Positions 5,217 to 62,955 of a stretch of DNA of 64,000 nt are shown in pieces. The notes beneath the pieces are model-generated. The model did no database searches. It had not been told where the DNA came from and saw only the letters and a program-made list of their open reading frames with translations. The stretch is from Rhynchobatus australiae (lineage: Eukaryota): contig JAUZTB010000084.1 in the NCBI GenBank assembly GCA_034780895.1, positions 9,404,670-9,468,669 of the forward strand, read 5' to 3'. How positions within the stretch are numbered: position 1 is the first letter of the stretch; every line of letters begins with the position of its first letter. The position numbers were made by a program, and so were the translations under genes.

Positions 5217-7132
5217 ATGGATTACCCAGCAATTTACTACATAGCGAGCATTTTCTATCCTGTACTTGCAGCGGTTGGGATCCCTGGTACGGTAATGGAA
5301 CTGACTGTTATGTGTGCTCTTTCTTCTTCTTGTTGCACCTGCTTCACTGCAGAATAGACGCCCTGACCCCATCACAGATGCTCCATTGTCTGCTGAGCTT
5401 CTTCAGGTTGTTCAAGTTTAACATGCTGTTTTCAGGATTTGTTCATTTTTTTTTCCATCTGGATCTTTTGTCAATGACATCGATTGAGTTAGCGTTGATA
5501 TTGACATTGTTCTAGCATTTTATCTTCCTTGACTTTACAAAGCATTAGCAATCTCTATTGTTCTCAGTCTGATTCTGCATCAACACAGAAACTTGAAGAT
5601 TTACAACAGAGAAAACCTTTTCCGTCGCCACAGTTTTACCAGCAGTTTCACGGTTTACTTCCGACATGTAGGTCGTTTTGCTTCACCGTGAAACAGCATA
5701 TGAGAACTCCTTTTCCATAAATCTGTTCAAATATCTTTTCAATTACAACAGCAACGCGAAAAATGTGATTTTTCCCCTTTTTGACCTTCTTTCTCCACCT
5801 TTAACTTTAAATCCACGGCTCTTCTCCCCAAATACGTTATGTCTGGAAATAATCTTTCTGACTCCATTTTATGCGCCCATCAATGCTCGTTTCAGCATTC
5901 TCAGACCCCACCAGAGCAAAAACTTCAGGACTGTGTTGATCCGCCGCTCACCGTTAAGTATGTCGTTTGCGTCAGGGTCCCCGCTGTAATCTGCTGGAGA
6001 TTTGCCGTCGCAATTGTGTCCGCGGTTGTACTCCAACTGGAGTACAGCCGCGGAGCCCAGGTGGTCTGAATTTCCTCACTCAGATTCTAAGCCAGCCTCA
6101 ACCTACAGAGAAGCAGATGAATGGGAGCATTTCAGCATGGTGCAGCGCAGCGTTCGGTATGGAATCCAAGTCAAAGTGTCTTGGTCTGGTGCACTTGCAA
6201 CTTATTTTTTTTTCTTTTTCTTCTTCCTTGCAGTTAATTTAGTGGCAATTGTGATCCTGTCTCGGGGAAAGTGCGGACTCTCCAAATGCATCACCCGTTA
6301 CCTCGTGGCCATGGCAACAGCTGATCTACTGAATGTTGTCATTGCTGTTTTATTGGAGCAGGTCAATAATATTTATGTTTATGCCACTGCTTTGCTCATT
6401 ACACCGATTTGCAGCGTGACACTTGTTCTGAGGATCGCAACCATGGATATTTCTGTTTGGCTCACGGTGGCTTTTACATTCGATCGCTGTATTTCAATTT
6501 GCAGTCAAAAGCTGCGGGAACGATATTGCACAGAGAGAATAGCGACTGTGGTGATTGTAGTTGTGGGTGTTGGGTGCTCTGCGAGGTCTGTTCCATATTA
6601 CTTTACAGTGGAGCCTTACATTATCATTGACAACGTGCCCTGGCATTGCATTAGCAACGCTGAATATCTTACTTCACCAGTGTGGAAAGCATACCAGGTG
6701 TTTTGCATTATCGCTCTGCCTTTATTACCAATCGGTGCAATTCTAGTGTTCAATGCTTTAACAGTCAGACATATTATAGCGGCAAATAGAGTCCGACGGG
6801 GACTCCGAAACAGCAGCGAGAATCGGAAAGATCCAGAGGTGGAGAACCGGAGAAAATCCATGATATTATTGTTCGCTCTCTCCGCAAATTTCATATTGTT
6901 GTGGGTACCGATTGTCGTGTTTTATATGAACTGGAAAATTCAAAATTATTTTTACCTCGACAAATATTACAGTACCCCGACATATATCCTGCAACAGTGT
7001 GGGTTCATGCTGCAATGTCTCTGCACCTGCACCAACACGTGCATCTATACACTGTCACAGAGGAAATTCAGAGAGGAGCTGGAGAATGGAGTGAAACGTT
7101 TGGTCACATTAAATGGGTGGCTTTGTAGATAA
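5217..7132 (+). CDS. Intact GPR139/GPR142-like orphan GPCR (copy 2); exons 5217-5286 and 6234-7132; 322 aa
   Basis: Exon 1 reads MDYPAIYYIASIFYPVLAAVGIP with phase-1 donor g|gtacgg. Exon 2 follows a polypyrimidine tract and cag|: VNLVAIVILSRGKCGLSKC...FTFDRC...NTCIYTLSQRKFREEL. The 969 nt are in frame and encode seven hydrophobic segments. AATAAA overlaps the stop. Confidence 0.9.
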
Positions 7133-7796
7133 TAAAACAACTGTAGTAACTTTCGTTGAAAGTTCAAGTAAATGCTCTGAAAGATTCGGAGATTTGGTAA
7201 ATGAACCATTAATCCATACAGCAAAGTGCGTGAACGTCAGTAGCGTATTCGTTCCAGAAGAGGCAGCGGAATTAATTTAGTTAATAGGAGAAACGATTAA
7301 CGAATTAAATGCCAGTATTGTGATTGTTTCATGCTTAGAATTATCTATGAAATCATTGGAATAATGCCAGAATTTGTCCAGCAATTTAGGTGCCGGCGAT
7401 ATGATTGTTTCCTTGGAGATTTACAGTATATTCCAAATCACTCGATAATCCATCCCTGGAACATCAGTGCACATCCTTGGTTGGAACTGGAGACATTTAG
7501 CATAAATAAAACAGTGCAACACTGGTCAGGACATTTGACCCATTTTGGCGCCAATCTTGATGGCAGCTTATACAAAATGCCCTTTTCTTGTGTGTCATCC
7601 ATATCCCACATTCCCTCATAATCATGTCTATATAAACGCCTCCTAAACCATAGTACCATAGAACAATACAGCACAATAAGGCGNNNNNNNNNNNNNNNNN
7701 NNNNNNNNNNNNNNNNNNNNNNNNNNNNNNNNNNNNNNNNNNNNNNNNNNNNNNNNNNNNNNNNNNNNNNNNNNNNNNNNNNNCTCTTCCTTGCAG

Positions 7797-8675
7797 TTAA
7801 TTTCATGGCAATTGTGATCCTGTCTAAGGGAAAGTGCGGACTCTCCAAATGTATTACCCGTTACCTAGTTGGCATGGCAACAGCTGATTTTATGAGTGTT
7901 GTCATTGCTGTTTTATTGGAGCAGGTCAATAATATTTATGTTTATTCTCGTTCTTTGCTCATTACTCCGATTTGCGCCGTGACCCTTGTTCTGAGGATCG
8001 CAACCATGGACACTTCTGTTTGGCTCACGGTGGCTTTTACTTTCGATCGTTGTATTTCAATTTGCTGTCAAAAGCTGCGGGAACGATATTTCAGTGATTG
8101 CAGTGGTGGGTGTTGGGAGCTGTGCGAGGTCTGCTCCATATTACTTTTCAGTGGAGCCTTACATGATCATTGACAACGTGCCCTGGCGCTGTATTAGCAA
8201 CTCTGAATATCTTACTTCGCCAGTGTGGAAAGCATACCAGGTGTTTTACAGTACCACTATGCCTTTATTGCCAATCGGTTTAATTCTATTGTTCAATATT
8301 TTAACTGTCAGACATATTATAGCGGCAAATGCAGTCCGACGGGGACTCCGAAACAGCAGCGAGAATCGGAAAGATCCGGAGGTGGAGAACCGGAGAAAAT
8401 CCATGATATTATTGTTCGCTCTATCCGCAAATTTCATATTGCTGTGGATTCCTATTGTCGTGTTTCATGTGAACTGGAAGGTTCAAAATTATTTTTACCT
8501 CGACAAATATTACAGTACCCCGACATATATCCTGCAACAGTTTGGGTTCATGCTGCAATGTCTCTGCACCTGTACCAACACGTGCATCTACACACTGTCA
8601 CAGAAGAAATTCAGAGAGCAGCTGGAGAATGGAGTGAAACGTTTGGTCACATTAAATGGGCGGCTTTGTAGATAA
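7797..8675 (+). pseudogene. GPR139-like GPCR exon 2 with 20-nt frameshifting deletion (copy 3)
   Basis: Acceptor ttgcag| at 7791-7796. Close homolog of 6234-7132 (879 vs 899 nt). The deletion at ~8091 splits it into ORFs 7805-8173 and 8094-8675. The 3' flank 8676-9190 is homologous to 7133-7650. Confidence 0.85.
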
Positions 8676-9039
8676 TAAAACAACTGTAACGTTTGTTGAG
8701 AGTTCAAGTCAATGTTCTGAAAGATTCGTAGGTTTTGTAAATAAGTCATAAATCCACACAGCGAAGTGCGTGAACATCAGAAGCGTGTTGTTTCCAGCAG
8801 AGGCAGCAAAATTAATGTAGTTAATAGGAGAAACGAGTTAAATAATTAAATGCTGGTGTTGTGATTATTTCATTCTTATAATTATCTATCAAATCATTGG
8901 ATTAATGCCAGAATATGTCCAGCAATTTAGGTGCCGGCGATATGATTGTTTCCTTGGGAGATTTACATTATATTCCAAATCACTCGATTATCCATCCCTG
9001 GAATATGAGTGCACATCTTTGGTTGCAACTGGAGATATT

Positions 9040-9725
9040 TAGCATAAAAAGAACAGTGCAGCACTGGTCAGGACATTTGGCCATTTTCTGTGCCAATCTG
9101 GATGCCAGCTGATACTAAATGTCCTTTCCTTGTGTATCATCCATATCCCTCATTCCCTTCATAATGATGTGTATATGAACGCCTCCTAAACTCAACTAAA
9201 CTGCCTGTTTCCACTGCAAACCCTGAAAACCAATTCCAGGACCTACTACTCTCTGTGTAAAACACTTCCATTTCACGTTGCCTTGAACCTCCCCCCATCT
9301 CATCTAAAAAGCGTGTCCTCTGGTCATTGAGATTTCTATCCTGGGGAAATGATTCTGACTGTGTACCATATCTATGCCTCTCAGTTTAAAAAAAAGCATT
9401 ATCAGTTCTCCTCTCAGTCTCCGGAGATCTCGGGAGAGCAATCTATGTCTGTCCATATTTTTTTTCTTATTCCTCATACACGATAATTGATGCAGCATCC
9501 CGATAAACCTATTCCGGACCCTTTCCACAGTCTCCGCATCTTTCCGATAATGGAAAGAACAGAACTTTACACAACACTCCAAGTGCGGCCTGACGAAAGT
9601 TTAATATAGGTGCAGCATGAGTTCCTCACGATTGTACTGAATAGACCTACCAATGAAGGCGAGCGTGCAATCCATCTTCTTTCCGATCTTATCCACTTGC
9701 CTAGCCATTTTCAGTAAACTTTGGA
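9040..9725 (-). mobile_element. CR1 LINE 3' fragment
   Basis: Minus ORF ECCVKFCSFHYRKDAETVERVRNRFIGML...RRLRGELI is a CR1 RT C-terminus. Confidence 0.8.
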
Positions 9726-10189
9726 CTTGTAAGCAAGATTACAATTAAATTTAATGTGGAAGGAAATCTGGTGCCAGATAAAGTGATCCGGAATATTTCG
9801 AATAAACATAGTAGAGAAAAATATATTGGCTCATACTGAGAAAGTAAAGGGTTAACAACTGTAAACATACCTATAAATGATAGAGAAAAAATACCTCGCA
9901 AGCAAAGAGCACGCAGACTGCTGACTCAATGGACAAGGAGTAACTTGTTTTGCCTGGGATCTTGGTCAGTCCCGTTANNNNNNNNNNNNNNNNNNNNNNN
10001 NNNNNNNNNNNNNNNNNNNNNNNNNNNNNNNNNNNNNNNNNNNNNNNNNNNNNNNNNNNNNNNNNNNNNNNNNNNNNATTTAAATATATTTATATATTTT
10101 TCTATATAATGACGCAATATACCGGAATTTACATATGCTTATAAAGAGTAGAACCACTAGGTTCCGCCCCAATATAATCTACAGCTGAT

Positions 10190-14790: not shown

Positions 14791-17099
14791 GGCATGAAAT
14801 ATTTTATATTCATGAAATATCATCGCGGAGATAAGGCAGAGGGACGGTTTGCCAAATTCGACATGTCCACTTTGACGGCACCCTTTCTCGTTCCCTCGAT
14901 AAAGCATCCGGCATAATCAAAGAGTCCTCCCAGCCGATTATTTTCTCTTCTTCCCACCCCCACCCCACCCCCCCCACAACCCAACGGGAAGAAGACACAG
15001 AAGCCTGAAAGAATGAACCAGCAACCTCAATGACAACTTCTGCCTCAGTGCCATAAGAAGGTTGTCTTCTATTGTCAGGATGGAATAGATATCTCGGTGC
15101 AACGCAGTAGTGTTTGGGGAGACCATCCCTGGAGGATGTAGGTCTCCAAATTGAAGCTATATTCTTAAGTCCGAGGCTGCCCTCGGATAGTTCGTAGGAT
15201 CGAACACTGAAGAGTGCGCGATTTCCTGCGGGGAAAGATTAGACAAAACTGCTTGGTATTCAGGAAAGACGCTGAACTGTTCGTGCTGGGACTGACGGGG
15301 TTGATGCTATGATGATATTTCCCCTTGTGAAATGAAACCCGGTCTAGTCCTCGGCTCCAGTAACCCAGGGAGTCATTGATGCTCCGTTGTTGTGCATATT
15401 TGAGGCTGAAATGGATGGGTTATTGGACGATAGAGCAGTCCGGAGTTCTGGGGAACGGTCTGGAAGCTGGAGTTGAAGCTATCAATAAGCTGTGATATTT
15501 TTGAGTGGTGCCCGGGACGGAATACTGCACGGGCATCTCTGCTACCACAATTATTCAACGCACTAAGTGTAACAAGAGGAATGATATCTTCCCGCGGAAT
15601 TTCCACCCAAAGCCAACGAAGACAACATCAAAGAGTCAACAGGACCACGTAAGATAAAATAACGCAGGACCTGGAGTGGGGCGACAAAAAATTATTCTTG
15701 AATTTGCGTGCTTCCACAAATTATTACAAAATTATTGTTTTCGTCGCCATTCTAGCTGCAGTTCCTGGGAGTATGCTACGCCTTCAGGATTGCGAGAAAT
15801 GTTCCTCGAATCCTTGTTTCCGTTTACAATGAAGAACAGATTGGGGAATATGTATCGGGTTGCANNNNNNNNNNNNNNNNNNNNNNNNNNNNNNNNNNNN
15901 NNNNNNNNNNNNNNNNNNNNNNNNNNNNNNNNNNNNNNNNNNNNNNNNNNNNNNNNNNNNNNNNAGAGAGAATAAGAATATATACACGTGTGTTTGGAGA
16001 CCACACGCCCTGCTGCCAGCACTGTCGATTCTCGAGACTCTTGAAACAGTACTAAATGTATAAAATAACAACATTTGGCTGCAGGGCGTAGAACTCGGGT
16101 GTCGTGCGGAGCTATTGCACTGAACCAATATGTGCAGCGCGGTCCCTGCACCCGGCCCAAGTCCAATAATACAGAGGAAAATGTGAAGAGATTAGCTCTC
16201 AACTATCCGTGATTTTCACCTGACTGGTAGCATTTTTGAGACCCTGTAACACAAACACAGTGGTATGTGGTGGGATAATTTGTCTGCGCAGCACGTAATG
16301 GACAGTGTTGGGACACGTTGCGAAGGAAGTCATTGAGTGATGGAGAGCCCACAATCCGAATGTTCAACCCACTGAATAGAATTGTTGCATGCGAATATTT
16401 GTCACATGAACAATAAGGCAGAAAGTGCAAGAATTTTACTTCATAATTGTATTTATCGCGATTAGTTCAAGTAACTCAAAGATTCACTGCATAATTTAAA
16501 TAGTTATTTAGCAGGTTAGTTTCACAACTTTTAAATTACTGAACACTTTAGTTGCTTAAACTCTTTAAGCAACAACTTCCAATTTACTACCCGCTCCAGA
16601 TCGACCTGAATTGACGACTCCTTGCCTGATTCCCTTACTCTGGGGCTTGTTCCTCAGTGTCTGGTCCGTGGAGTCCCTGCTGCTGGTTATCTCGTAAGGC
16701 ACGGTTTTATCGTTTTTTTTTATGCAGTCCATACCTGGCTAAATTCTTCACATCCAACAATGCGGCTATGAATCAACGATTTTCCCTACGTTCGCGCTTC
16801 TTTATCCCCTGCACTATCCCACTGAAAACATTCCAAAGTTATCTCAGCCATCGGTTCCTTAATTAACATGTGTCTATTTATNNNNNNNNNNNNNNNNNNN
16901 NNNNNNNNNNNNNNNNNNNNNNNNNNNNNNNNNNNNNNNNNNNNNNNNNNNNNNNNNNNNNNNNNNNNNNNNNNNNNNNNNTTTGAAAGCCTCCTTCTTA
17001 CTGGATATCAAGTTGCCCGCGACCAAGCTACTCCAATCAACTTTTTAAAACTTTCTGTATCATACCCTCAAACTTTGCCTTGCCCAATTTGGAACTTTA

Positions 17100-21712: not shown

Positions 21713-22984
21713 AGACGGCGGAACAGTTCAGTTATCAAAGCTTTGATTCTGTGTCAGACGCAGACACAATAAAACCATAGTTCACAGCAGTGATTAATAT
21801 CAAACATATTGTCACCTTTATTCAACCTTGCCAGTCTATTATGTACGAAAGGATTTCGCTGACGTCCGTCCATATGAAGATACACACATATTCAATCATT
21901 GCATGCACACTGTTTGAAAGCAAAGCTTTCACAACAAGTTAGCCCAACTACATATAAATTTTATAACTGGCTGTGTTCGCACTTGCTGGTCGTTTGAATC
22001 ATGTTCCTAAATCAGACACCCACTCCGAGCCATTTGGAGATTGGTTTTCTGATCCAAACCATTGAAATTGTAGTTGCGCAAGGCAAGCACACATGCGCAG
22101 ATACCACTCAAATTCCATGAGTGAAATTCTGGGTCGGGACAGATGACCATGGAAGCAAGCATCGTGAGAGACAATTTCCAGAATTGGAATTAAATACCAA
22201 TTTCCACCAACTGCAACTGAGACAGCGGCTTACGAGGAAATGCCTCGTATCGGAAAGATTGCTAAATATCCTATTTCATTGATAAGCTGTGACTTCTGCT
22301 GTTCTGATATCCAGAGCTCCGGCAGACACATTGATCGGATGTCCCCTAATAGATTCGGATTTATACAGAGGATCATTCTGCGGTTGATATGTTACANNNN
22401 NNNNNNNNNNNNNNNNNNNNNNNNNNNNNNNNNNNNNNNNNNNNNNNNNNNNNNNNNNNNNNNNNNNNNNNNNNNNNNNNNNNNNNNNNNNNNNNNNNNN
22501 NNNNNNNNNNNNNNNNNNNNNNNNNNNNNNNNNNNNNNNNNNNNNNNNNNNNNNNNNNNNNNNNNNNNNNNNNNNNNNNNNNNNNNNNNNNNNNNNNNNN
22601 NNNNNNNNNNNNNNNNNNNNNNNNNNNNNNNNNNNNNNNNNNNNNNNNNNNNNNNNNNNNNNNNNNNNNNNNNNNNNNNNNNNNNNNNNNNNNNNNNNNN
22701 NNNNNNNNNNNNNNNNNNNNNNNNNNNNNNNNNNNNNNNNNNNNNNNNNNNNNNNNNNNNNNNNNNNNNNNNNNNNNNNNNNNNNNNNNNNNNNNNNNNN
22801 NNNNNNNNNNATCTGTAATATTTTTTGCTAACCAGGGAACAAGAATATTAGAAAAAAAAGATTTTTAAAAATCGACTGTATATCCGTCAAAGCCAGGTGT
22901 TTTAACCCGAGTTGTTTCCCTTAACCAGAGGTAGAATTTACCTTAACAACTAGGGTTCATGATCTCCATCAGATTTGTCTTGTA

Positions 22985-24139
22985 GTTTTACAGGAAAATA
23001 TAGTTCTTGAACGCTGGCCATGTGACTTTTGGAAACTTTCCACTTTCCAAGGTCCCTTCCCAAGAAAAGAAACAGTTTACGTCAATATTTGCAATATTTC
23101 TCATACCGTCCAAATTTGCCTTGCCCCGATTCGGAACTCGAACCTACGGATCGGTTCTGTCCCTTTCCAGAATTACTTTAAAACCAACAGAACTGTGGTT
23201 ACTGGCTCAAAAGTGTTCCCTTACCGTAACCTCAATCACTTGCGCTTCCATATTTCCCAGGAGTAGAGCAAGCTTTGCCCCTTCCCCGGTAGGGCCCGTA
23301 CATACTGCCTGCGTAAACTTTCCTGAACACACTGAATAAATGCCACCCATGGAGACATTTAAAACTGTGGCAATGTCACATAACGTTCGGGAAAGTTAAA
23401 CTGTCCTCCGATTACACCACCATTATTCTTACAACAATCCCCAATCTCCCTGCACATCTGTTCCTCTAATTCCCGAGGACTATTTGGAGGCCAATAATAA
23501 CATGCCAATAAGGTGTTCACCCCGTTCTTATTTCTCATTTCCACTTATAAATCCTCATCTGATGATCCATTAGAACTATCATCTCTGTCTACTGTCTTCA
23601 GTAGTATCTACTCGAACGACTGTCGTGATGGTCCCCTTCATCCAAAAGGCAACTCCCCCTCCGCTGTACGTCCATCTCACATAAAGTGCTTGCATCTTGG
23701 AATATGAATCTGCCACTCATGCCCTCTTAGCTATGTTTCCATAATGGCAAAAATATCCCAACCCCTAAGTTCCTCCTCCTTTCCAGTCAGACCTCTTGCA
23801 TTGAAGGAAATGTAATCCTTTAACCCTTTAGCAATTTAACCCAACCGACTTTACTCGCTCTTTGCCCCACTACTTCCTGACCTGCTGTTCAATTTCATCT
23901 CGCTGTCTTCTCTATATGGATATGCTACTTCTCAATTACCTTACTTCTACGAGGGATCGTACCCCCTGCCAATGTAGGTTGAACCCTCCCTTGTAGCTCG
24001 GGAAAATTGCCCCGCGATGGTTTTGGTCCCTTCCAGTTTAGGTGTACCCCGTCCTACTTTTACAAGTCGACTCTGTCCGAGAAGAGATTATAATGGTCCG
24101 ATTTCCAAATCACTGCTCTCTGCACCAATGAATAACGCC
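22985..24139 (-). mobile_element. CR1 LINE 5' part (ORF1 end and endonuclease), copy A
   Basis: EMRNKNGVNTLLACYYWPPNSPRELEEQMCREI..GQFNFP matches a CR1 APE domain. Confidence 0.8.
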
Positions 24140-24239: not shown

Positions 24240-26830
24240 AATTTCTTCTCAATCTGCACAGATCGAAGGGACGTCAGAAGGCCTTGTCTCTCCGTCCCTG
24301 CAGTTTCTCGGTTCAGGATGTGCACTTCCATTCTTCAGTGGTTCAACCCTTTCCTCGCCGCTCACTCTTTGCAACGTATCGAAAGCACCGCTGTCCGTGT
24401 GCGTTTTATCTCAAATTTCTGTCTTGAGTATACTGAGGCATCCTCAATAGATCTCCAGTAACACACATGATCCCAGCTGCCCGTTACTGTCCCACACCCC
24501 TTCTTTCTCTTAAGCAGAGTAACAATTTCCCTTACAGCCCCCAGCAGTTTTTCATTTTACTTTAACCGGAAAATGTAGTTCTTGAATTTTTGCCATATCA
24601 CTTTTAGAAAGCTTCCACACTCAGAGGTCCCTTTCCTAGAAAATAAAACAACTCAGTCAATGTTTGGATGCCTCTGCCTGATACCGTCAAAATTTACCTT
24701 GCCCCAATTCGGAACTTGGACCTGCGGATCAGTTCTGCACCTTTCCATAATTACTTTAAAACCAACAGAATTGTGATCACTGGTCTCAAAATGCTCCCTA
24801 CCGTGAACTCAGTCACTTGCTCTTCCATATTTCCCAGGAGTACATCAAGCTTTGCCCCTTCCCTGGTCGGGCCCCCTATAAACTCCCTGAATAAACTTAC
24901 CTAACACACTGAATGAATCCCACCCATCTAGACGTTTAACACTTTGGCAATGCCAGACAATGCTCGGAAGTTAAACACCATTTATTCTCCGATGACAACA
25001 CCATTATTCTTAAAACTCTCCCCAATCACTCTGAACATCTGTTCCTCTAATTCCGAGGACACACTTCGGAGCCAACAGTAACATACCAACAAGGTGGTCA
25101 CCTCCTTCTTATTTCTCAGTTCCACTGATAAATCCTCATCAGATGATCCATAAGGAATATCATCTCTGGCTACTGTCTTCAGTAATATCTTCTCTAACGA
25201 CTGTCGTGATGTTCCCTGTTGTGTGGGAAAGGGTCTTTTGGAATTTTAAAGAGAGAGAACTCTGGTCACAGCCTTTGGATTTTAAAATTCGTTTAATCAC
25301 AAAGGCAAAAGTGGGGACAGAATGAATAGGAGCACATTCACACTCACACACACATACAGGAGAGTGCGAACGTAAAGGAGAATCTCAACGAGGAAGAAAC
25401 AGACACAGCCACTCACACACACAAACACACAATAAACGAGGTACAGCTTCTCAAGGGCTGAACACTTCAATGCTTTAATAGGCTGACAAAAAAAGCATTG
25501 GCCATAACACGCCCTGGAAACTGACGAAGACGGTTACAAACCACGTGGTGGTGCACACTCTTAGCAGTGGCATCTGCAGGGTTGTCTCACTTTTCCTGGG
25601 GCAGTCGAAAGAGAGAGACAAGGGGGTTGCAATACTCTTTATAGTGTTGGGAGGCTGGGTGGACCTGGCCATGTGACGTAGGTAGGTCAATGGTTTGGAG
25701 GTCAAGGACAAAGTGCTTGCCACGGACAATGGTTAAGCAGGGTCAGGAACAAAGGTAATTCTCCAAAACGAATCCCTATGCCTACAGCTAATGGGTGGGT
25801 GGAAACCACACCTTGATTGACAGTGGTGTCACTTCCGATCTGAGGAGAAGTGCTGTGCTTCGACCAGCGGGGTCTGTTTAATTACAGTCACGTGACAGCC
25901 ATGTGCTCTCCGACCACATTTCCCTTCATCAAAAAGGCAACTCCTCCTTCTCTCTTCGCTTCACGTCTATCTCACATAAAGTGCTTCTGTCTTGGAATAT
26001 TAATCTGCTGCTCTTGTCCTGTTTGCCATTTTTCCATAACAGCGAAAATAACCCAGTCCCTAAGTTCATCCGCCTTACCTATCATACCAATTGCATTGCA
26101 GTAAATTTAACCGTTCAACCCTTCAACATTTAACCCAGCCGACTGTACTCGCTCTTCGCCATACTCCCTTGCCTACCTGTTAGATTTGATCTCGCTGTCT
26201 TCTCTATCGCTATGCTGCCTCTCAGTTACCTCACTCCTACATCGGATCGCACCCCTGCCAATGTAAATTCAACCGTCCCTTGTAGCTCGAGCAAATCACT
26301 CCGCGAGGATATTGCTCCCCTTCCAGTTTAGGTGTAAAACGTCCCACTTACACAGATCATAATTCTCCAAAAACTAAATCGCTGCCCTCTGCACCAATTA
26401 TTCAGCCACGCCAGATCCTCCGATTATTTTCTTCACTAGCTCGTGACACTTATATCAGTCAGAGGTTACTACGCTGGAGGTCCTACTTACCTGCTGACCG
26501 AATTCCCTATATTCCTTATTCACGGCTTAGTCCCTATTTCTACCAATGTCCTATGTGCGAAAGTGCACAACTTCTGATTGTTTAAACATCCGAATGAGAA
26601 TGTTCTGCAGTCGCTCTGAAACTCAGGAGGTTCTGCATCCGCAAACGTGAATCCAAGATGATACGTTGCCTCCTTGATGTCAGGGTCAAGAATGTCTCCC
26701 ACTAATATTAATACCCTGACAATCCAGATTCCTATTATTCACTTTTCCCCACTGCGCCACAGAGCCAGTAACGGTGCCACGATCTTAACTGCGACTCCTT
26801 TCTACTGCAAGGACATTGCCCCTGCACTCT
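24240..26830 (-). mobile_element. CR1 LINE 5' part, copy B, interrupted by an LTR
   Basis: Colinear with copy A (24545-25216 and 25919-26400). Esterase-like ORF1 remnants extend further. Confidence 0.75.
25217..25918 (-). mobile_element. Solo LTR (702 bp) inserted in CR1
   Basis: TG...CA termini; flanks gttccc/tttccc form a near-perfect TSD. Absent from the homologous site in copy A. TATAAA on minus at 25638-25643. Confidence 0.8.
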
Positions 26831-38439: not shown

Positions 38440-38552
38440 TCATTGCGTGGTGAGCGGTCTGCAACATACGAGCCCGTGAGAGCAGCTTCCAAACTGGTAC
38501 TCTTTGTTGATGCAGTACTGAGCACAACATGCACCTATAGAGCGGTAATTAA
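38440..38552 (-). CDS. Beta-defensin-like mature-peptide exon (terminal, phase 1)
   Basis: Acceptor tttatgatttacag|. Translation xNYRSIGACCAQYCINKEYQFGSCSHGLVCCRPLTTQ*. Spacing [Y]-x6-C-x3-C-x9-C-x5-CC with GxC. AATAAA on minus at 38340-38345. Confidence 0.75.
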
Positions 38553-43560: not shown

Positions 43561-46500
43561 GTATAGAGGACCCAAGCAGAGAAAGTGCAACACTAGACAT
43601 TCATTTTGGGAATGAGTCAGGCCAAGAGACTGTCAGTAAGTGAGCAATTTACGACCAGAAGGCCATTAGTTTTGAAACACTGATGGAAAAAGACAGGGCT
43701 CATCCACAATCAGGTGTTTAATAGGCCCAGGTTTAATTTTGGTTGCATTTGGCGGGAACTTGCAGAAGTCGATTGGGTGAGACTGTTTGTAGGTAAAGGG
43801 ACTTCTGGAAAATGAAAGGCTTTTAAGAGTGAGATATCTGGAGGGAAGGGCAGCATGTTTCTGTTGGGGTGAAGGGAAAGGCTTCAGGTTCAGAAAAAGA
43901 AATTGGTTGACGAGAGATATTCGGGCTCTGGTCAGGAAAAGAAATTAGATCGACATTATATTTACATATTTTAAATCAAATTACTTGTCGAGTACAAGGA
44001 GTAGGAGCACACGAGGAAAATCAGGAGGGCAAAAGGAGGAACTGAAAAGGATGTGCCAGCCAAGGTCACCGAAATTCCCAAGATATTATNNNNNNNNNNN
44101 NNNNNNNNNNNNNNNNNNNNNNNNNNNNNNNNNNNNNNNNNNNNNNNNNNNNNNNNNNNNNNNNNNNNNNNNNNNNNNNNNNNNNNNNNNNNNNNNNNNN
44201 NNNNNNNNNNNNNNNNNNNNNNNNNNNNNNNNNNNNNNNNNNNNNNNNNNNNNNNNNNNNNNNNNNNNNNNNNNNNNNNNNNNNNNNNNNNNNNNNNNNN
44301 NNNNNNNNNNNNNNNNNNNNNNNNNNNNNNNNNNNNNNNNNNNNNNNNNNNNNNNNNNNNNNNNNNNNNNNNNNNNNNNNNNNNNNNNNNNNNNNNNNNN
44401 NNNNNNNNNNNNNNNNNNNNNNNNNNNNNNNNNNNNNNNNNNNNNNNNNNNNNNNNNNNNNNNNNNNNNNNNNNNNNNNNNNNNNNNNNNNNNNNNNNNN
44501 NNNNNNNNNNNNNNNNNNNNNNNNNNNNNNNNNNNNNNNNNNNNNNNNNNNNNNNNNNNNNNNNNNNNNNNNNNNNNNNNNNNNNNNNNNNNNNNNNNNN
44601 NNNNNNNNNNNNNNNNNNNNNNNNNNNNNNNNNNNNNNNNNNNNNNNNNNNNNNNNNNNNNNNNNNNNNNNNNNNNNNNNNNNNNNNNNNNNNNNNNNNN
44701 NNNNNNNNNNNNNNNNNNNNNNNNNNNNNNNNNNNNNNNNNNNNNNNNNNNNNNNNNNNNNNNNNNNNNNNNNNNNNNNNNNNNNNNNNNNNNNNNNNNN
44801 NNNNNNNNNNNNNNNNNNNNNNNNNNNNNNNNNNNNNNNNNNNNNNNNNNNNNNNNNNNNNNNNNNNNNNNNNNNNNNNNNNNNNNNNNNNNNNNNNNNN
44901 NNNNNNNNNNNNNNNNNNNNNNNNNNNNNNNNNNNNNNNNNNNNNNNNNNNNNNNNNNNNNNNNNNNNNNNNNNNNNNNNNNNNNNNNNNNNNNNNNNNN
45001 NNNNNNNNNNNNNNNNNNNNNNNNNNNNNNNNNNAATGGAAAAAAGACAGGGTTCGTCCACAATCAGGTGTTTAATAGGCCCAGGTTTAATTTTGGATGC
45101 ATTTGGCGGGAACTTGCAGAAGTCAATTGGGTGAGACTGTTTGTAGGTAAAGGGACGTCTGGAAAGTGAAAGGCTTTTAAAAGTGAGATATCTGGAGGGA
45201 AGGGCAGCATGTTTCTGTTGGGGTGAAGGGAAAGGCTTCAAGTTCAGAAAAAGAACTTGGTTGACGAGAGATATTCAGGCTCTGGTCAGGAAAAGAAATT
45301 AGATCGATATTATATTTACATATTCTGAATTACTTGTCGAGTACAAGGAATAGGAGCACACAAGGAAAATCAGGAGGGCAAAAGGAGGAAATGAAAAGGA
45401 TCTTCCAGCCAAGGTCACCGAAATTCCCAAGATATTATGCAGATATATTGAGGGTTATGGAGTTGGCAGGGAGAAATTAAGTCTTCTTAAGGACCGGCAT
45501 GGCTGTCAATTCATGGAACCACAAGAGGTGGGTAAGATTTTTAATGAATAATTCTCATCAGATTTTACTGCAGAAATCATGGAAACTATGGGATTGACTC
45601 CAAATTAGCAGTGATATCTTGGGCCATGTCCGAATTACAGAAGACGCGGTTTTGGCAGTCTTAAACCACATTAATGTGGATAAATCTCCAGGGATGACCA
45701 CTGCATCCTCGGATCTTGTGGAAAGCTGGGGAAGAAATTATGGAGGCCCTTGCAGAGATAATTACATCATTTTTAGCCACAGCTGCAGTCCTGAAAGATT
45801 TGAGGATGGCTAATGGTGTACTGTTATTTAAGAAGGGTAACAAAGATAAGCAAAGAAACTGCAGGCCGTTAACAATGACATTAGTGGTGTTAAGTTACTA
45901 GAGGAGATTCTGAAGGTCAGGTTCTACCAGGATGTGCAGGGAGAAGAACTGATTAGGGACAGTCAGCATGGCTCTGTATCTTGGCAATCGTATCCTAAAA
46001 ACCTGTTAGAACTTTTGAAGTGGATTGTTGAGAGCATTGCTGAGGATATTGTTTGCATGGACTTTAGCATGTCTGGAAAGTCAGATCTCGGAGGAGTTGG
46101 CCAGTTGGATTCATTATTGACTCGATGGCAGGAAGTACAGTGCGATGGTGGAAGATTGTTTTTCAGACTGCAGGTCTGTTACTCGTGGCGTGCCTCACGG
46201 TTCAGTGCTGGGACCACTGTTGCTTGTCATTGAAATAAACGATTTCGACGAGAATGTACAAGGAATGATCAGTAAGTTTTCCGATGATATTGAAAATGGG
46301 TAATATCATAGACAATGCAGAATATCGTAAAAATTAAACGTGGATCTTGAACAGCTTGGTAAGTGGGACAAGTAATGCAACCGGCTCATTCCAGATGAGA
46401 GGGAAGTGTTGTATTTTGGTAAATCAAAATAGGAAAGAAATCTCGGACTGACCTTCCTGGGGAGGTGTTGTAAAACACAGGGATCTTGGAGTGCAAGTAA

Positions 46501-46847
46501 ATATTTCCCTGAAACTGTCATCACAAGCAGACAAGGTTGTGAAGGCGGCGTTTGGCACACTGGCTTTTTATCATTCAGGGCATTGAGTTGAAGAGCTGGG
46601 ATGTTATGTTGCAGTTGTACAAAACGTTGGCGAGTCCGCACCTGGAGTATCGTGTGCAGTTTTTTCGGGCTGATTTGCTGGAACTGGACAGCCTAAGTTA
46701 TAAGAGACGTAGGGCAGGCTCAGCCTTTATTCCATGGAGTGTAGGAGACTGACTGCATTCCTTATGGAGGTGTATAAAATCATCATCAGGGACATAGATG
46801 GGGTGGATAAACATAGGCTGTTTCCCAGGGAAAGAGAATCAAACATT

Positions 46848-47127
46848 AGAATAGATAAGATATCCTTAATAGTTACATGCATATCAAACACACATAGTGA
46901 AATGCATCTTTGTGTTGAGTGTTCTGAGAGCAGCCCGCAAGTGTCGCCATGCTTCTAGCGCCAAATAACACGCCCACAACTTCCTAACATGTCTTAGGAA
47001 CGTGGGAGGAAACCCACGCAGACACGGCATGAACGTACAAACTCCTTACAAATAGCCACCGGAACTGAACCCGTGTTGCTATCACTGTAATAGCGTTACA
47101 CTAACCGCTACACTGCCGTGCCTGCCC
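46848..47127 (-). mobile_element. tRNA-derived SINE nested in CR1
   Basis: Minus strand ggcacggcagtgtagcggttag (A-box-like) and ggttcagttcc (B-box-like). Confidence 0.8.
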
Positions 47128-49745: not shown

Positions 49746-51419
49746 TGACAAAAGGCAATACATTTACAAAGTTACGCTCCGGTTTCTGCAGTCTACATCT
49801 TTGCCAGAGACAAACGTCTGAAGAACTACTTCCTGCACCATATTCTCACACATGTATACATCTGAATCATTCTCCATTTACTGTACTCGCCTGCACATGG
49901 CAACAGAGAATGCAGAGGTTCAAAGTTCAAATGTTTAGCCTTTTTATCCTGCTGCCTCTCAATCAGAATTGGCCTTACTGGACATCGTCTCTGTTTCTCA
50001 TGTGTGACTTTATGACTTGCAACTTCTAATGTATTACCCTCCAACGTTAACATGCGATGCAACAGTTCTGTGGCATGCTTGACACTGGCACCAGGGTGTG
50101 TCACACACCATTCCGGTTTTGCGGCTGCAGCCGCAGAAGTCTTCCACCACAAGTGAATTTCGGCTCATTCTCCGCCATCCCAAACCCCGTACCACGCGAT
50201 ATATCCTGGAGCGGAGGCCCGCATCGAGTCCGCATCTTTGCTTTGGCTCAGTCCTCCGAAGAACGCCACCCCAGGGTTTTGCGGTACTATTTTTAGTGTT
50301 TGAATTGGTCTGTGCTGACTCTTTCTCGACTTGTTGCTCGNNNNNNNNNNNNNNNNNNNNNNNNNNNNNNNNNNNNNNNNNNNNNNNNNNNNNNNNNNNN
50401 NNNNNNNNNNNNNNNNNNNNNNNNNNNNNNNNNNNNNNNNATTGACTCTTGAACTCATAATTTACCTCGTTTAGATCTTGAACCTTACGACCTCCCGACA
50501 CTGCACTTTATATCAACTGTAACACTTTATTCTGCATTCTGTTTTTTTTTCGTACAACCTCAATGAATTTTTGCAATGAATTGATCTGCGTGGATCATAT
50601 GCAAGACTAGTGTTTCACTGTACATCAGTACATGTGATAACAGGCAATAAATTTACAAAGTTGCACTCCGGTTACTGCAGTCTCCATCTTTGCCAGAGAC
50701 AAAAGTCTGAAGAACTACTTTTTGCACCAAATTCTCACACATGTATACATCTGAATCATTCTCCATTTACTGTACTCGCCTGCACATGGCAACAGTGAAT
50801 GCAGAGGTTCAAAGTTCAAATGTTTAGCTTTTTTTATCCTGCTGCCTCTCAATCAGAATTGGCCTCATTGGACGTCGTCTCTGTTTCTCATGTGTGACTT
50901 TATGAATTGCAACTTCTAATGTATTACCCTCCAACGTTGCGATGCAACCGTTCTGTGGCATGCTTGACACTGGCACCACGGTGTTGTCACACACCATTCC
51001 GGTTTTGCGGCTGCAGCCGCAGGAGTCTTCCACAACAAGTGAATTTCGGCTCTTTCTCCGCCATCCTAATCCCCCGTACCAGGCGATATATCGTGGAGCG
51101 GAGGCCCACATCGAGTCTTAATCTTTGCTTTGGCTCAGTCCTCCGAAGAACGCCACCCCACGGTTTTGCGGTACTATTTTTAGTGTTTGAATTGGTCTGT
51201 GCTGACTCTTTCTCGACTTGTTGCTCGTGCTCTCAGCTCTGTTTCCTTTTACCACTTCCTTGGCCTGAGATTCCGGTTGATCTGCGGTGTTTTCTTTCTA
51301 CGAGTTGTCGCGGCGTCTGAGTTACCTCATGGAGATTCAAATTGCTCTTTCATTGTGACCAGTAGCATCAATCTGGTTATCTGAAACCTTGTCCGTGTTT
51401 GAGCGTGAATCGACTGCTT

Positions 51420-53170: not shown

Positions 53171-54995
53171 ATTTGTATGATTGTTGAGAGTTTTCCAGCG
53201 ATAAGCGCTGCAGGTGATAATTTACAGTCTGATTATGGCAAGTAAATAAACTCCGTTGAACCGTTATACAGCACAATACAGAATCCTCAGTGGGAGCGAG
53301 AGAAGGAGCTGAAGAGGTGGAAACGAATGGGCATCAGGAACACACGGCGTATGCGTGGGTCACAATGGAAGTACTGCGACGTTGAAGTCAAGATGAATGA
53401 AATCCGCAGGATGTTCAACCGGGACAGGTTGAGAGATGAACGCCAGGGAATGCAGGGAGAGGATGGCAGCAGGGAGCACTAGCAAAGCACAGAGGAATCT
53501 TACAGCAACTTACCAGTGTGGAAAGGTGAACTATAACAACACGGGTTCCCAATGGGGCAGACTGTGTCCACGGTGCTTCGGGGATGTAGGAGAAGGAGTC
53601 CGGCGAGTTGTGGTGGGGCCAGAAATTACACACTTCCTCTTAGCGTTGAGTGCATTTTACAATTTTGAGGGGTGATTACCCACTTTCTTCAGCTGCTCCA
53701 TGAACGTCTCACTCACGGCCTTAAGAGCGGTGTTGATGCAACACATTCTCACAGAATGTAGTGGACGCACAAACACGTAGAAGTGCAAATGCAGCCGGCT
53801 CCACACAGAATACACCGTAAACTATACCTCCCAACAGGAGGAAATAGATAGCGATAACCAACAGTAAAATGAGGGAATTCTTGCGGCTCTCCATTTCCGG
53901 GTCTCTGGGAAACTCCCCACTGCTGGGAACCCGGATACTCCTGTGAGCTCTACTCACCACTAAAACATATCGGCTGGTCAAGACATTGAACAGAAGAATG
54001 AGGACAAATGGGACCACGTGTGAGGAGATGATAAAGGAGCTCGATTGCCGACTAGACAGATAAAGACAAAAGCAATGAATTCGTGGACGGCAAAACGAAT
54101 TTGTATTAAACTTGGAATAATTTTCTGGCGACTAAAATACCATAAAATATTCTTTAAGCTGCTCAGCACAGTCACTGTCCCCAGAACCACAGCCGCCGTT
54201 CTCACGATGCAATATTTAGTTTTCTGCTTCTGGCAAGAAATGGCCACAAATGGATCAAAAGTGAAAGTGACGGTGAACCAGACTGAACTGTCGGTGGTTG
54301 CATGAAGCAGCACGGCGTGGAAATTCTACACGGTGATAGACCAGAGAAAACGGATAAGTCCCTCTTAAACTATCGGGATCTGCCTCAATATCAGGTCCAG
54401 GATAACGTCCAGTATATCCGCCGCTGCCATGGCAGCGATTGATTGATTGAACGAACTCAAAATATAGCAAAAGTCATAGATTCTCTGGAATTTTGCAAAT
54501 AGGGAATTTTAGGACTGCAGACTGTCGTTGAGAGATAATAAATACGGCGGAAAGCTGTACCTGCAGCATTTCAATGAACGTGTGCACACAGCGAGGATTA
54601 GACGGTTCATGCGCAAACATTTGAAGATGACAAATAGGTCCACAAAGAAATTAACCAAAATCCCGTGATGTTGCGATAGGTTAGAGGACACAAACCAGCA
54701 AGTCTTCATAAACTGATAGATATTACACTCGTTTCCAAGCAACTGTAATATTTCGTCCAATTCTGAATGGCTCGCCGGAAAGGAATGAAAGACTCGGAGC
54801 GACCACGAGCGGATTTACTGCAGTGGACCTAATGATAGGAATACTGAGATCGAATAAAGGCGCTCAGTTTTATTTCTTAAGTGATCTAGAAATAAAATGA
54901 TGCAGAGAGTGTAAATAACGTGAGTTAGTCTCCGTGGATGAAGGCTATGAACTCAGATACAAACTTAAACTGAAACAAGAAGGTATGAGACTCAC

Positions 54996-55131: not shown

Positions 55132-56439
55132 TGGATGTCGTTTCAATGAAGTTGGGTAAAATTCTCTTGGACGAATAAACTTCGTCCATGTTACGTTATT
55201 CTCTGTGTCACCGATATTCCCTGTCTGCAATGCATCAACTTCTGATCAAGGTGTCAGCACAGATACGATCGAGAATGATGTCCATCTAATTAAACAGACG
55301 CATTTGGAAGACTTACAAAGAGGGGGGGAAGCAGAGTGTATTGTCAGTCAGATGTTTTAAACAGGTGGCAGGTGTGCAGAAAGGTTTCTGAACCGAGGCG
55401 TAGGAACACTGTTATTTTGCTTCCATTCCAAATGCCAGCAGCTGTGCCATGCAGGACATCGATTGGACTTCCAAAACGGTAGAAAGAGCACATGGTTTTA
55501 AGGTCGTATGGCTCTACTCCATCGAAAGAGACGGCGATCTATTTCGTTTTTTTTCCCCCGCAGAATGCTCAAATCTTTTGATAAACTGCGATGAAGAGAT
55601 GAACGGTCTCCAGGAAGTCAGCNNNNNNNNNNNNNNNNNNNNNNNNNNNNNNNNNNNNNNNNNNNNNNNNNNNNNNNNNNNNNNNNNNNNNNNNNNNNNN
55701 NNNNNNNNNNNNNNNNNNNNNNGACCTGAAGAATCAGGAAATGGAGAACGGCACAAAAACGGAAATCATTGGATTTCGTTTCAATGAAGTCGGATAAAAT
55801 TCGCTTGGACGATTAAACTTCATCCATGTTACGTTATTCTCTGTGTCACCGATATTCCCTGTCTGCAATGCATGAACTTCTGATCAAGATGTCAGCACAG
55901 ACACGATCGAGAATGATGTCTATCTAATTAAACAGACGCATTTGGAAGACTTGCAAAGATGGGAGAAAGCGGAGTGTATTGTCAGTCAGATGTTTTAAAC
56001 AGGTGGCAGGTGTGCAGAAAGGCTTCTCAACCGAGGCGTTGGAACACTGTTATTTTACTTCCATTCCAAATGCCAGCAGCTGTGCCATGCAGGACATCGA
56101 TGGAGTTCCAAAACGGTACAAAGAGCACATGGTTTTAAGGTCGTGTGGCTCTACTCCATCGAAGGAGACGGCGATCTATTTCGTTTTTTTTTCCCGTAGA
56201 ATGCTCAAATCTGTTGATAAACGGCGATGAAGAAATGGACGGTGTCCAGGAAGTCAGCGACTCCGGGGTTAAAATAACAGATGAAGACGATGCTGTTTAG
56301 CACAAAACATGAAATGAGATTTTAAGGAATGAGCATCAAATGGTGCAATATTAAATATGGGCGATGGATCTGAGGCACTAAGGGTAGGAGGACATCACAC
56401 AGATATTCCAAGGCGCGGAGAAAAGGTTAGGTTTCTCAT

Positions 56440-56600: not shown

Positions 56601-58326
56601 CTCATCCAGAATATTACAGACGTCTGAACTGAGCGACTTCAGAACGCGATTTGCTTTTTCAGTTTCTAACGCCTCTAAATCCATATTTTTCTTCCTTTTC
56701 AAGCTATTTCTATCCCCTTTTAGATTTTCACAACCATCATTATTTCTGACAGGCACCATGTTGCAGATGTTTCCACTTTCCGCCTCCGTTATATTTGTTG
56801 CCTGCCCGTGTTATTCCAAACCTGATGCAAGTTTATACATCTGTAACAATAACCCTGTCGTCTCTCCCAGTGCGATCTATCACGGTTAGCAGTTCAGGAT
56901 GTTTAATTGTCTTTCAGATTTTTCTCTTGTGTTTGTTCTGGGTGGAGGGGTTCAATAATGACTAAGTCATTGCGTTGGTAAGTAAGGAGATCCAGTAACA
57001 GAAACTAGCGATGATGCGTTATATTTTATAAATAATTTGAACCTTAATCTGAATATTTAATCCTGTTTCGAAGTTGCAGAGAAAACGGGGTGGAGCGTGA
57101 CCAGAGTGGGACCAAGGGTCGAGTTCCAAGTTTCTTTGACAGGATGAGAAAGATCTTCAATGAAATTTAATGCAGAGTTCCTAACTACGAAATGTATTGG
57201 CGAATGTTTTAACATTGATATTTAAACCGATATTGATTTAACAAAACAACAGCAGCAAGGGGAGAATCATCGCAATGAGACGATTCCTTCTGTAAGAAGA
57301 CTAATTATTAACCTTCGATATTGAACTTCCTTTGTAATTTTATTCTGCAACAGCTTGGCAGAAAGAATAGAAAATAATATTGAGAAAAAGTAACTGAAAC
57401 CCTGTCCAGCTGCGCGTTGAAAGGGGCAGGGAATAGATCTCATATGGAGACGCCGAACCATTCATGCAGCCGCCCATAAGACTGGAAATACGAAAATTAA
57501 ACGTTGCGGACCAGCACCAACCTAAACCGGAAAGGCAGAAGCGACGGTTTTCGAGACGTGCAGAGACTGGGCGATCAGAAAATCCTGTTTGGGGACGTGG
57601 AATGCATGGGTAAGCGTTTGAGCAGCAAATGGGCGGTGGTTCTGAATAACAGGCCTGTTTTTAGCTGGAAGGAGGAAGGGTAAACTTGCGGGATGGAACA
57701 GACAGCAATGTACAGATAGCAATCGGAATTAACGAGGATCGGAAGCATTCGGATGTGGAACCAAAATTCATGTGAAACAGTCATGTTCAGCAGATATTGT
57801 TGCGTGGTGAATGGAATGTGTGGGTGGGAAACGGTGTTTCTGAAAGCAATCTGCAAGCGTCTCAACACTGAAGGAACCTGTGCAGTATAAAAGTTTACAC
57901 GTTGCAGTTTTTATGGCTGCATTTGGAGAGTTCTCAGAGTCGACAAAAACAGCAATGGTGGTAGTGTGATTTACAGCAATGCAATTAGCAAAGGTTTGCT
58001 AAATTGACACCTGGAGTGAGCGATGTATCAGGAACAGCAGCATCACATTGAATGTGAGGTTTGAATGAGAAGGAATAAACGAGAAGGAAGTTAAATATCA
58101 CTTTCATAATTAGCTGCTGGATAAAGAGACTTACCAGGAACAGCAACAATAGCGAGGACGGGTACTAATTTATTTGGATTGCATGTGTATTTCGGACATC
58201 CAACGTAATCCATTCATAATTTGCAAAAAAATAAATTGAACGACCTGGAAGACATCCTTCCCAATCTAGTTGTTTTCCACGCTGTTGCTCCTAGATTCCA
58301 ACGCATCACTATTTCCGGAGACTGAT

Positions 58327-60324: not shown

Positions 60325-61100
60325 TCATAGTCATGATCTCAAAGAACAGAAATAGGCACTTTGCTCAGTTTCTCCATAGCGTCCAGCGACATTAATCCAA
60401 AGTACTCGCACTTGTTCAGAAGGCTTCTGTGCCTTACCGATCCAAATACACATCCAGATACCTGTGAACTGCTGTGTGGGTGTCTGCCTCCCAACACCTG
60501 CTCAGACAGTTCATTCTAGATCGCAACTGAAAAATTATTGCCTCCCACCCCCTAATTCCTCGTGTAACCGCTGTGTAATTTTTCTTTGGACTACAGGTGA
60601 AAAAGTCCAAAACTCCCTAACCGAGGTTGCCATTCATAATTCTCTTTCCATCATGTTCCCCTCAGCATCCTCTACTCCAAGAAATACAAACCCGGACTTT
60701 CCAGCAATTGCTCTGAATTGAAACATTCCAGGCCAGGCAAAATCATGGTGAATCCCCTTTGCACCCATACAGTGTTTCCGCAGCCTTCCAGGGTTGTAGC
60801 GTTAGTGCTGCACAGAGCTCTCCAGCTGTGGTTGAAAGAAAGTCATATGAATGTGTATGATACACAAAGGTACGCCAAAGATCTCTGTTTCTCAATTTCT
60901 GATGTGGAATAATTCATGTTCTACTGCTGTTTGACCTCCCAAAGTGCATCTCAGTGCATTGAACGCGATCAAATTTCACGGAGCCTTACTCCGACAAGTT
61001 TACCAGCTGATACCTACAATTATGCAGCTTTGTTCCGAACTCCTTACTCTCAATAACACCATTAATTTTCGTGCTATCTACGCACGAACAACTCATACCA
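60325..61100 (-). mobile_element. Old CR1 3' fragment
   Basis: Decayed tail and RT end. Confidence 0.55.
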
Positions 61101-61849
61101 TCTACATTCACATACATATCATTCACGTATGATGGAGAGCTTGGGCACTCTGAGCTGAAGCTCCTGTTTCCGTGTTGCACGTTTCTTTGGCTCTGAATGC
61201 ACAATACTGGGCTGACCAGCATTGCGATTGAGTTGAAGTGCAAAGGCCTGATGATAGATCGAATTTGCAAGTAGAGTGGGATTAGTGACGAATTCTGATG
61301 TTAATTTTAAAGATATAAATTAGGATCACCAGATTCATTGCAAAAAAGACATTCAAAAGAATAACTTAGACATGTCTGGAATGGTGAGACTCAAGCTCTC
61401 CCATTGTGTACTTAGCACAGCCTTGCATTTGCTTGACTATCATTATTTGTGTCACTTATTTTGTTTAGAGTCTTTTAATAATTTCTATTTCCTGGATTAC
61501 TGGAAGTATGCCTGAGAAGAGTAGTGTTCTGGGAATTGTAGGTGAAAAATTTAATGCAAGAGGAAGAGCGAAAGTATGAATTAGGTAGATTTAGAAATGT
61601 TTTCCGTGTCAGTAATTAATTGCAAATCCAAGTATTTTTTTTCAAAAAATGATTCTCACTAATTTTTGTTACATGGGTCCTAATTGAAAACTTCTGACTG
61701 TCTAAAGGTACCAGGAACATGGGATATCCCTCATCTATAATGTTCACTACATTGTCAAAAGTAGCAGTGTATTTGTTAAATTCCTATGCATATTCAGGCA
61801 TATTTGCCCTTACGTAAATCATGTTGCCTTTTTTGACCAGTCACCACTT

Positions 61850-62560
61850 TCCTACTGTTGATGAAGGAAAGGTGTTGGATGTTGTCAGAATGGACATGAG
61901 CAAGGCCTTTGACAAAGAGCCGCATGGGAGGATGTTCCAGTGGCTAATTGGCTTGGAATTTAAGATGAAGTAGTTAATTGGATTCAACATGGGCTGAGCA
62001 GGAGACGCCAGTAGGTGGTTATCTCTCTGACTGGAGGCCTGAGTCCGTTGTTGTGTGTCATCGATATTGATGATTTAGTTGATAATGTGANNNNNNNNNN
62101 NNNNNNNNNNNNNNNNNNNNNNNNNNNNNNNNNNNNNNNNNNNNNNNNNNNNNNNNNNNNNNNNNNNNNNNNNNNNNNNNNNNNNNNNNNGCTAATTGGC
62201 TTGGAATTTAAGATGAAGTAGTTAATTGGATTCAACATGGGCTGAGCAGGAGACGCCAGAGAACGGCAGTATGTGGTTATGTCTGACTGGAGGCCTGAGT
62301 CCGTTGTTGTGTGTCATCGATATTGATGATTTAGTTGATAATGTGAGAAACCGGCTCAGCCAATTTTTGGATGAACGAAATTGGGAGGGTGGTGCGGTAG
62401 GGGTGGCACAGTAGACAGCACGGAACGCGATCAAAGCCTGCAAAGTGAAATTGTCCAGCTGCGAAAATGGTTTCAAAAATGGCAGTTGGAACTTAATGCA
62501 GACAAGTCTGACGCGTTCCGCTTGGAATTAACCGGGTTATGAGACTGTCTACATTGCTTT
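61850..62560 (+). mobile_element. CR1 RT fragment
   Basis: DEGKVLDVVRMDMSKAFDK and WQLELNADK. Confidence 0.7.
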
Positions 62561-62798
62561 GATGTGGTTGTCACGAACTTGAAGGGGTGTTGTTTGTGTT
62601 CTGTGATAATAAAATGTATTCTATATTATTATTGCATTTATACGTAGCCATGTACAACATTCTGTTGTTCAATTATTACTCAGACTGGCGCCTAAATTTG
62701 TTAAGAACACACTTGTGGTGAAACTTTAATACTTCGATGCCAAATGGTACAAATCACCATTTGCGCTATCTTTAACTGCAGCATGTTCACTTCTTGAT

Positions 62799-62804
62799 TA
62801 TAAG
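62799..62804 (+). promoter_or_regulatory. TATA-like box
   Basis: TATAAG about 55 nt upstream of the ATG at 62856. Confidence 0.45.
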
Positions 62805-62855
62805 TAGTTGCTGTAAAACCGTCCATTTCAATGTTTCCAAGGATATCAATTGACG

Positions 62856-62955
62856 ATGAAAATACCCTTCTTGATGCTGAGCGTTCTCGTGTTGCTGCAT
62901 GTGCAGCACAACTTTCCTGGTGAAAATGCAGCGAGAGGAAGAGACTTCTACCAAG
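62856..62955 (+). CDS. First exon of a small secreted peptide (defensin-type signal and propiece)
   Basis: MKIPFLMLSVLVLLHVQHNFPGENAARGRDFYQ with phase-1 donor caag|gtcagt. An alternative phase-1 donor lies after 62919. Kozak-like gacgATG. Confidence 0.6.

Follow-up and report, generated by a model that had tools for sequence, protein, structure and literature searches.

In the ray Rhynchobatus australiae, a stretch of 64,000 nucleotides (assembly GCA_034780895.1, contig JAUZTB010000084.1, hereafter C84, positions 9404670-9468669; referred to as the window) carries receptor genes resembling GPR139 interleaved with genes for defensin-like peptides. Does this arrangement unite peptide ligands with their receptors, or have the two families simply come to share an unstable piece of DNA? 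A sequence-only reading of the window had put forward a co-evolving receptor-ligand locus, with a shared duplication-prone region as the fallback, and it is the fallback that fits our data best. The window, which is separated by 430 kb from the end of its 9.9-Mb scaffold, is in our judgement part of a chromosome-end array of GPR139-like genes, and its beta-defensins are probably passengers of the same segmental duplication, not dedicated ligands. The co-location itself recurs elsewhere in the genome, and this part of the original proposal stands; the pairing of particular peptides with particular receptors finds no support, given the disparate copy numbers, the scattered neighbours and the uncoupled decay of the two families.

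As had been noticed beforehand, the window holds four GPR139-like loci (tblastn) and one defensin-like mature exon, at 38.5 kb (Table 1). A single one of the four loci, copy 2, is intact, and the Pfam model Defensin_beta matches the exon with 22 bits at a cut-off of 21. The suggestion that both families turn over by duplication and decay was also borne out, by broken copies and by a block duplication that the window shares with C55315, a contig of 26,282 bases without a single N. This contig carries an intact sister of the window's defensin and two broken GPR139-like genes. Its receptor block matches C84 at 9.79-9.81 Mb and at 9.30 Mb and its defensin block matches the window; as the two blocks match different places, they have been reshuffled, and C55315 is a mosaic. 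The defensins of the window and of C55315 are sisters with 73% amino acid identity, whereas their receptor neighbours are not sisters, and a tree built from 51 receptor loci (500-1300 nucleotides) spreads the receptor neighbours of defensins over many separate clades. The comparison of gene trees, which had been proposed as a check, points in this respect away from pairing, although the defensin tree, with only 1 of 13 branches well supported, lacks the resolution for testing congruence formally.

Numbers and preservation are likewise uncoupled. A 30-base receptor motif has 361 exact matches in the genome (0 for the reversed control) and recovers 26 of 62 mapped loci (42%), from which we estimate about 860 receptor loci genome-wide, a mismatch of about 45-fold with the 19 defensin exons described below. 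On C55315 an intact defensin lies by two broken receptors, and in the window the intact copy 2 lies about 31 kb from a defensin that lacks Cys1, the first of the six canonical cysteines. Two sampled arrays, on C83 at 290-390 kb (7 loci) and on C89 at 340-440 kb (9 loci), gave no match to defensin hidden Markov models, in a test that covers 200 kb, two arrays and 16 loci.

We propose that terminal arrays exchange blocks ranging from several to some tens of kb, that a defensin gene, once inside an array, would be carried to further arrays while its position relative to the receptors is shuffled anew, and that after dispersal each gene would survive or decay independently. By analogy with what is known of the two families, the peptides may be secreted host-defence or chemotactic molecules, and the receptors sensors of small or peptide chemical cues.

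Is the proximity of the two families above chance? Eight defensin sites could be used to judge this, six further exons lying on contigs of 0.6-1.4 kb that are too short for a neighbour test. A receptor locus lies within 20 kb at six of the eight, namely the discovery site on C84, C55315, two sites on C93, C42, and C83 at 1.6 Mb, where the neighbour is a 326-nucleotide fragment; the distances range from 4 to 20 kb and both orientations occur. The two sites free of receptors, C83 at 6.4 Mb (260 kb, 66% sequenced) and C78 at 8.1 Mb (80 kb, 60% sequenced), adjoin ordinary genes, with exons of chloride-channel, peptidase C78, lipoxygenase and ZP-domain type. The stretches around receptor loci, 20 kb to either side, make up at most 1.6% of the genome, and a receptor was found in 2 of 40 control tiles of 10 kb, placed 350 kb inward from each end of 20 large scaffolds that had been chosen from unrelated noise matches (65% sequenced). 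Once the discovery site and its duplicate C55315 are removed, four of six sites are positive (p ~1e-6 against the genome). Counted by tiles, the comparison is 6 of 32 versus 2 of 40 controls (Fisher test, p = 0.07). The co-localisation that the sequence-only reading had proposed to test has been recovered in this one genome: the association holds against the genome as a whole and is modest when set against chromosome ends. The defensin searches were seeded from array-linked peptides, and the link on C55315 is the only one free of gaps, all others crossing 1-12 of them.

A number of observations weigh against a purely passive role of the defensins. Their proximity to receptors exceeds even the chromosome-end background, with four of six sites against an upper expectation of 18.5% (binomial p = 0.013; with the two C93 sites taken as one, three of five and p = 0.047). 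The two families also seem to be associated rather exclusively: the 89 long open reading frames of the receptor-bearing regions revealed no third multigene family, only retroelement domains and one SCAN domain, in a survey that genes with short exons escape. Defensins of three different subgroups, in a weakly resolved tree, are array-linked. Among the receptors, the pocket positions 3.32 and 3.33 of transmembrane helix 3 are highly variable (89th and 92nd percentile of columns), and a neutral or acidic net charge (-4 to 0), found in 7 of 16 peptides, is unusual among membrane-active antimicrobials. The lack of gene-by-gene congruence between trees would itself be compatible with ligand use where binding is promiscuous. 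One might speculate, then, that some array receptors are activated by the linked peptides, in a system of immune or chemical communication. The model for genetic linkage between a defensin-like ligand and the receptor it acts on is SCR/SP11-SRK at the Brassica S-locus, where there is one of each per haplotype and the two co-evolve without reshuffling; in the ray, by contrast, numbers, trees and decay are uncoupled. Beta-defensins act on CCR6, CCR2, MC1R and MRGPRX2, so that the fold can act on class A G protein-coupled receptors (GPCRs), but these receptors are not known to be linked to defensin genes, and in a search of PDB they have no detectable similarity to the array receptors (none to CCR6, MC1R or MRGPRX2 for copy 2 at E 0.001). 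The recurrent proximity, the gap-free linkage on C55315, the variable helix positions and the neutral or acidic peptides would all suit such a system, as would reports that adrenocorticotropic and melanocyte-stimulating hormone (ACTH/MSH) peptides act on human GPR139 (PMC7318219) and that beta-defensins are chemotactic via chemokine receptors, those of fish via receptors still unknown (PMC8231796). With some 860 receptors for 19 peptides, non-congruent trees, uncoupled decay, and both arrays without defensins and defensins without arrays, we nevertheless consider it improbable, and equally so the form in which a subset of the roughly 860 ray receptors would read the beta-defensin-like peptides encoded among them, as a vertebrate code dispersed over chromosome ends.

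It is also unlikely that the families, without being ligand and receptor, are kept together by a regulatory domain that they share or by a common tissue such as a barrier, sensory or reproductive epithelium. The excess of proximity over the terminal background and the absence of a visible third family would agree with this, whereas the variable orientation and distance, the two defensin sites outside arrays and the receptor neighbours, most of them pseudogenes, would not. Another possibility is that the interleaving is mostly a product of scaffolding short repetitive contigs. Gap-free blocks in the C84 region have a median length of 2.3 kb, nearly every link crosses gaps, and at 12 of 97 gaps of 100 N the two flanks are copies of one another, as was the case at 0 of 100 control points, which suggests that paralogous or haplotype contigs have probably been set in tandem and that copy counts may be inflated. 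Yet both families lie on the single gap-free contig C55315, its defensin segment is paralogous to that of the window, which independently sits in an array, and the pattern is repeated at five scaffold sites; an origin of most of the interleaving in the assembly is, in our view, improbable.

The interpretation of the defensins as passengers of segmental duplication has a parallel in the human genome. At 8p23.1, duplications of defensin genes are linked to a core duplicon that includes the olfactory receptor OR7E (PMC5088589). There, too, defensins lie inside duplication blocks with multicopy class A GPCR genes, and no ligand relation is claimed in the part of the article used here; unlike at 8p23.1, the ray GPCRs are GPR139-like, many have open frames and most are at chromosome ends, and the defensins are found on at least five scaffolds. 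Even as passengers, the peptides would provide a testable set as well as this parallel, and the ligand hypothesis, if true, would provide ligands for a very large family of orphan receptors and reveal a linked peptide-receptor code in a vertebrate.

How closely are the array receptors related to GPR139? Among the best 120 of 1812 database matches of copy 2, nearly all come from sharks or rays and bear the name probable or putative GPR139, with ray proteins named probable GPR139 at the top (70-75% identity), and the sole match in PDB is to human GPR139 constructs (E 4.8e-7). Of the 247 residues aligned between copy 2 and human GPR139, 60 are identical (about 24%, by manual count), compared with 70% between the human and zebrafish orthologues (PMC7318219). 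At the positions of the human agonist-site residues F109, H187, W241 and N271 (PMC5430874), copy 2 has I, F, W and F, and among 67 family members F is found in 3, H in 0, W in 67 and N in 2, all positions being mapped via the 24%-identity alignment. The tryptophan W6.48, invariant in the family, is thus the only one of the four key pocket residues kept. Like GPR139 and GPR142 (PMC7318219, PMC5430874), the array receptors are class A seven-transmembrane proteins with two coding exons, the number in the human GPR139 gene (PMC7318219); unlike them, they have low identity, F109, H187 and N271 are replaced, and there are hundreds of copies instead of one. Judged by their sequences, they are distant relatives of GPR139 and not orthologues, and the pharmacology of human GPR139 is not transferable to them. 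Additional GPR139-related subtypes have been reported in bony fishes (PMC6504862), and cartilaginous fish have been described as GPCR-poor (PMC8455134). A protein search of the ray genome gave 3712 first-look receptor candidates, 133 of which were scored. In the terminal 614 kb of C84 there are 36 receptor loci, with exon 2 open in 9 of 35 and 14 cut by gaps, and many matches of the receptor motif are close to scaffold ends. A receptor subclade near three defensin parts was set aside as unremarkable, since it accounts for about 14 of the 100 motif matches listed first (counted by eye).

The defensin family comprises 19 mature exons genome-wide, found by iterative single-peptide searches and local profile scans on C84, C93, C42, C83, C78, C55315 and six small contigs. 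This is a lower bound: genome-wide, the Pfam defensin models were insensitive and returned mostly noise, and it was the single-peptide queries that found members. Fifteen of the 19 exons are open with all six cysteines, in the spacing C-x6-C-x3/4-C-x9/10-C-x5/6-CC, and complete two-exon genes on gap-free sequence are present on C55315 and C42. Net charge ranges from -4 to +12, with an acidic subgroup. A profile of 17 exons matches human beta-defensins (E 1.1e-6), with E values from 1e-6 to 7.5e-5 for the beta-defensins in PDB; three paralogues, scoring 20.9, 20.2 and 10.3, fall below the Pfam cut-offs. The protein databases yielded no homologue of 4- or 17-member alignments in a word-based search of low sensitivity, and the HMMER library returned three unrelated multi-repeat proteins only. 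Matches on C80505 (a tandem repeat), C127, C2, C87 and C79 were non-defensins on inspection, and one on C71 at 28.69 Mb was excluded as doubtful, having no Cys1 and an unclear acceptor.

In cysteine spacing, in signal and mature exons joined over a phase-1 intron, where both are assembled, and in the predicted three-stranded fold, the family resembles vertebrate beta-defensins (PF00711/PF13841; PMC8231796), and it has two coding exons as in mammals, versus three in teleosts (PMC8231796). It departs from them in that the loci are dispersed and not conserved, both window-linked peptides lack one canonical cysteine, and there is no close database relative. Antimicrobial peptides of cartilaginous fish are little studied, and section 14 of PMC6795676 names no shark defensin. 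Our literature search, which left most subscription papers and supplements outside its reach, found nothing on GPR139-like or defensin families in cartilaginous fishes or on their linkage. In the genome papers of catshark and whale shark the term defensin does not turn up in the passages searched, though supplements of shark genome papers may list these families, and sharks are unmentioned in the excerpts of PMC8231796 and PMC11541337. Dispersed over the ray genome, the family counts at least 19 beta-defensin exons; it is without a match in the databases and literature searched and lies partly inside a receptor expansion of hundreds of copies.

Table 1. Receptor and defensin features of the window (positions counted from its first base).
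Feature	Position	Strand	Remarks
GPR139-like copy 1, exon 2	7..950	+	tblastn 55% to copy 2; one in-frame stop
GPR139-like copy 2, coding exon 1	5217..5286	+	23 codons + 1 base, phase-1 GT donor
GPR139-like copy 2, exon 2	6234..7132	+	intact; Pfam 7tm_1 E 8.4e-16
GPR139-like copy 3, exon 2	7797..8675	+	90% to copy 2; frameshift by 20-nucleotide deletion
Duplicated segment	34144..39792 and 45328-46954		75-87% identity to gap-free contig C55315
Beta-defensin-like mature exon	38440..38552	-	phase-1 AG acceptor, 36 codons, stop
GPR139-like copy 4, exon 2 remnant	53799..54469	-	stops and frameshifts; tblastn E 1.8e-22
GPR139-like copy 4, decayed exon 1	58135..58213	-	GT donor present
Defensin-type signal-peptide exon	62856..62955	+	33 codons + 1 base, phase-1 GT donor

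In the defensin peptide at 38.5 kb a tyrosine replaces the Cys1 of the paralogues and an additional cysteine precedes Cys2, so that the canonical six-cysteine spacing is absent. Its signal exon is unassembled, homology to the paralogue ending at the gap 39793-39892. An AlphaFold2 model, which rests on the alignment of paralogues, predicts three strands (predicted local distance difference test score 81), and its best structural match is human beta-defensin 6 (Z 5.2, root mean square deviation 1.7, 37 aligned); in Foldseek the top match is human beta-defensin 4 (HBD4), at an E value of only 0.086, and defensin-fold toxins appear low down in the list of structural matches, a venom role of the peptides being at most conceivable. 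A sister exon on C37422 is 96% identical, has the same tyrosine and is broken by a stop, and C58380 carries a probably related signal exon, likewise broken. Compared with the exon of C55315, 16 of 113 sites differ, against 147 of 880 in the flanks. None of the five exon changes relative to the 96% sister falls to the 38.5-kb exon, yet the sister's flanks also change faster (24 vs 10), so that these counts speak neither for nor against selection.

The sequence-only reading had allowed for one or two signal-peptide exons in the window. One is present, near its right end, and belongs to another gene: its in-phase splice partner is a mature exon at C84:9475955-9476073, 7.3 kb past the window with one 100-N gap between, which has five of the six cysteines, Cys6 being missing. 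Scans of the window gave no convincing second signal exon. This signal exon and the mature exon at 38.5 kb lie on opposite strands, which rules out that they form a single gene. Defensin-type signal exons without a mature exon in the assembled sequence were also seen at C84:9677870 (550 bases past a receptor locus, with gaps between), on C6504 and at C83:6461492. At 6.31-6.56 Mb of C83 a defensin pair lies amid chloride-channel, peptidase C78 (UFSP-like), lipoxygenase and rhodopsin-family exons, and this region is a candidate for an ancestral, array-free defensin locus. A ZP-N domain exon lies about 3.5 kb from the defensin pair of C78 (L189:6687-7229, C78 8.087 Mb).

As for the receptors of the window, exon 1 of copy 1 is expected inside a run of N before the start of the window. 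Copy 2, once spliced through a GT-AG intron, has 322 codons in its two coding exons, and an exon 1 of its type precedes many receptor paralogues. Exon 1 of copy 3 is not assembled; a 100-N gap lies directly upstream, and because the flanks of this gap duplicate each other, copy 3 may be a paralogous or haplotype contig placed in tandem by the scaffolder. A weak relic similar to a receptor exon 1 is found at 15722-15769 on the forward strand (E 0.31), with neither a donor nor a downstream exon 2.

The genome, of 2.23 Gb, is assembled in 81,522 contigs. Across the window there are 21 gaps of N, 12 of which separate copy 3 from the 38.5-kb defensin exon, and flanks duplicated at 89-97% identity are seen at the gaps 7684-7783, 31741-31840, 33738-33837, 44090-45034, 50341-50440, 55623-55722 and 62091-62190. 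The window also contains a local duplication, 80% identical, of 22966-24059 and 24541-26349, split by an insertion of 700 bases. Finally, Ty3/gypsy-like retroelement domains (gag, protease, reverse transcriptase, RNase H and integrase) occur within the arrays (L065:1202-4182, L088:3253-3951 and L110:3526-5948).

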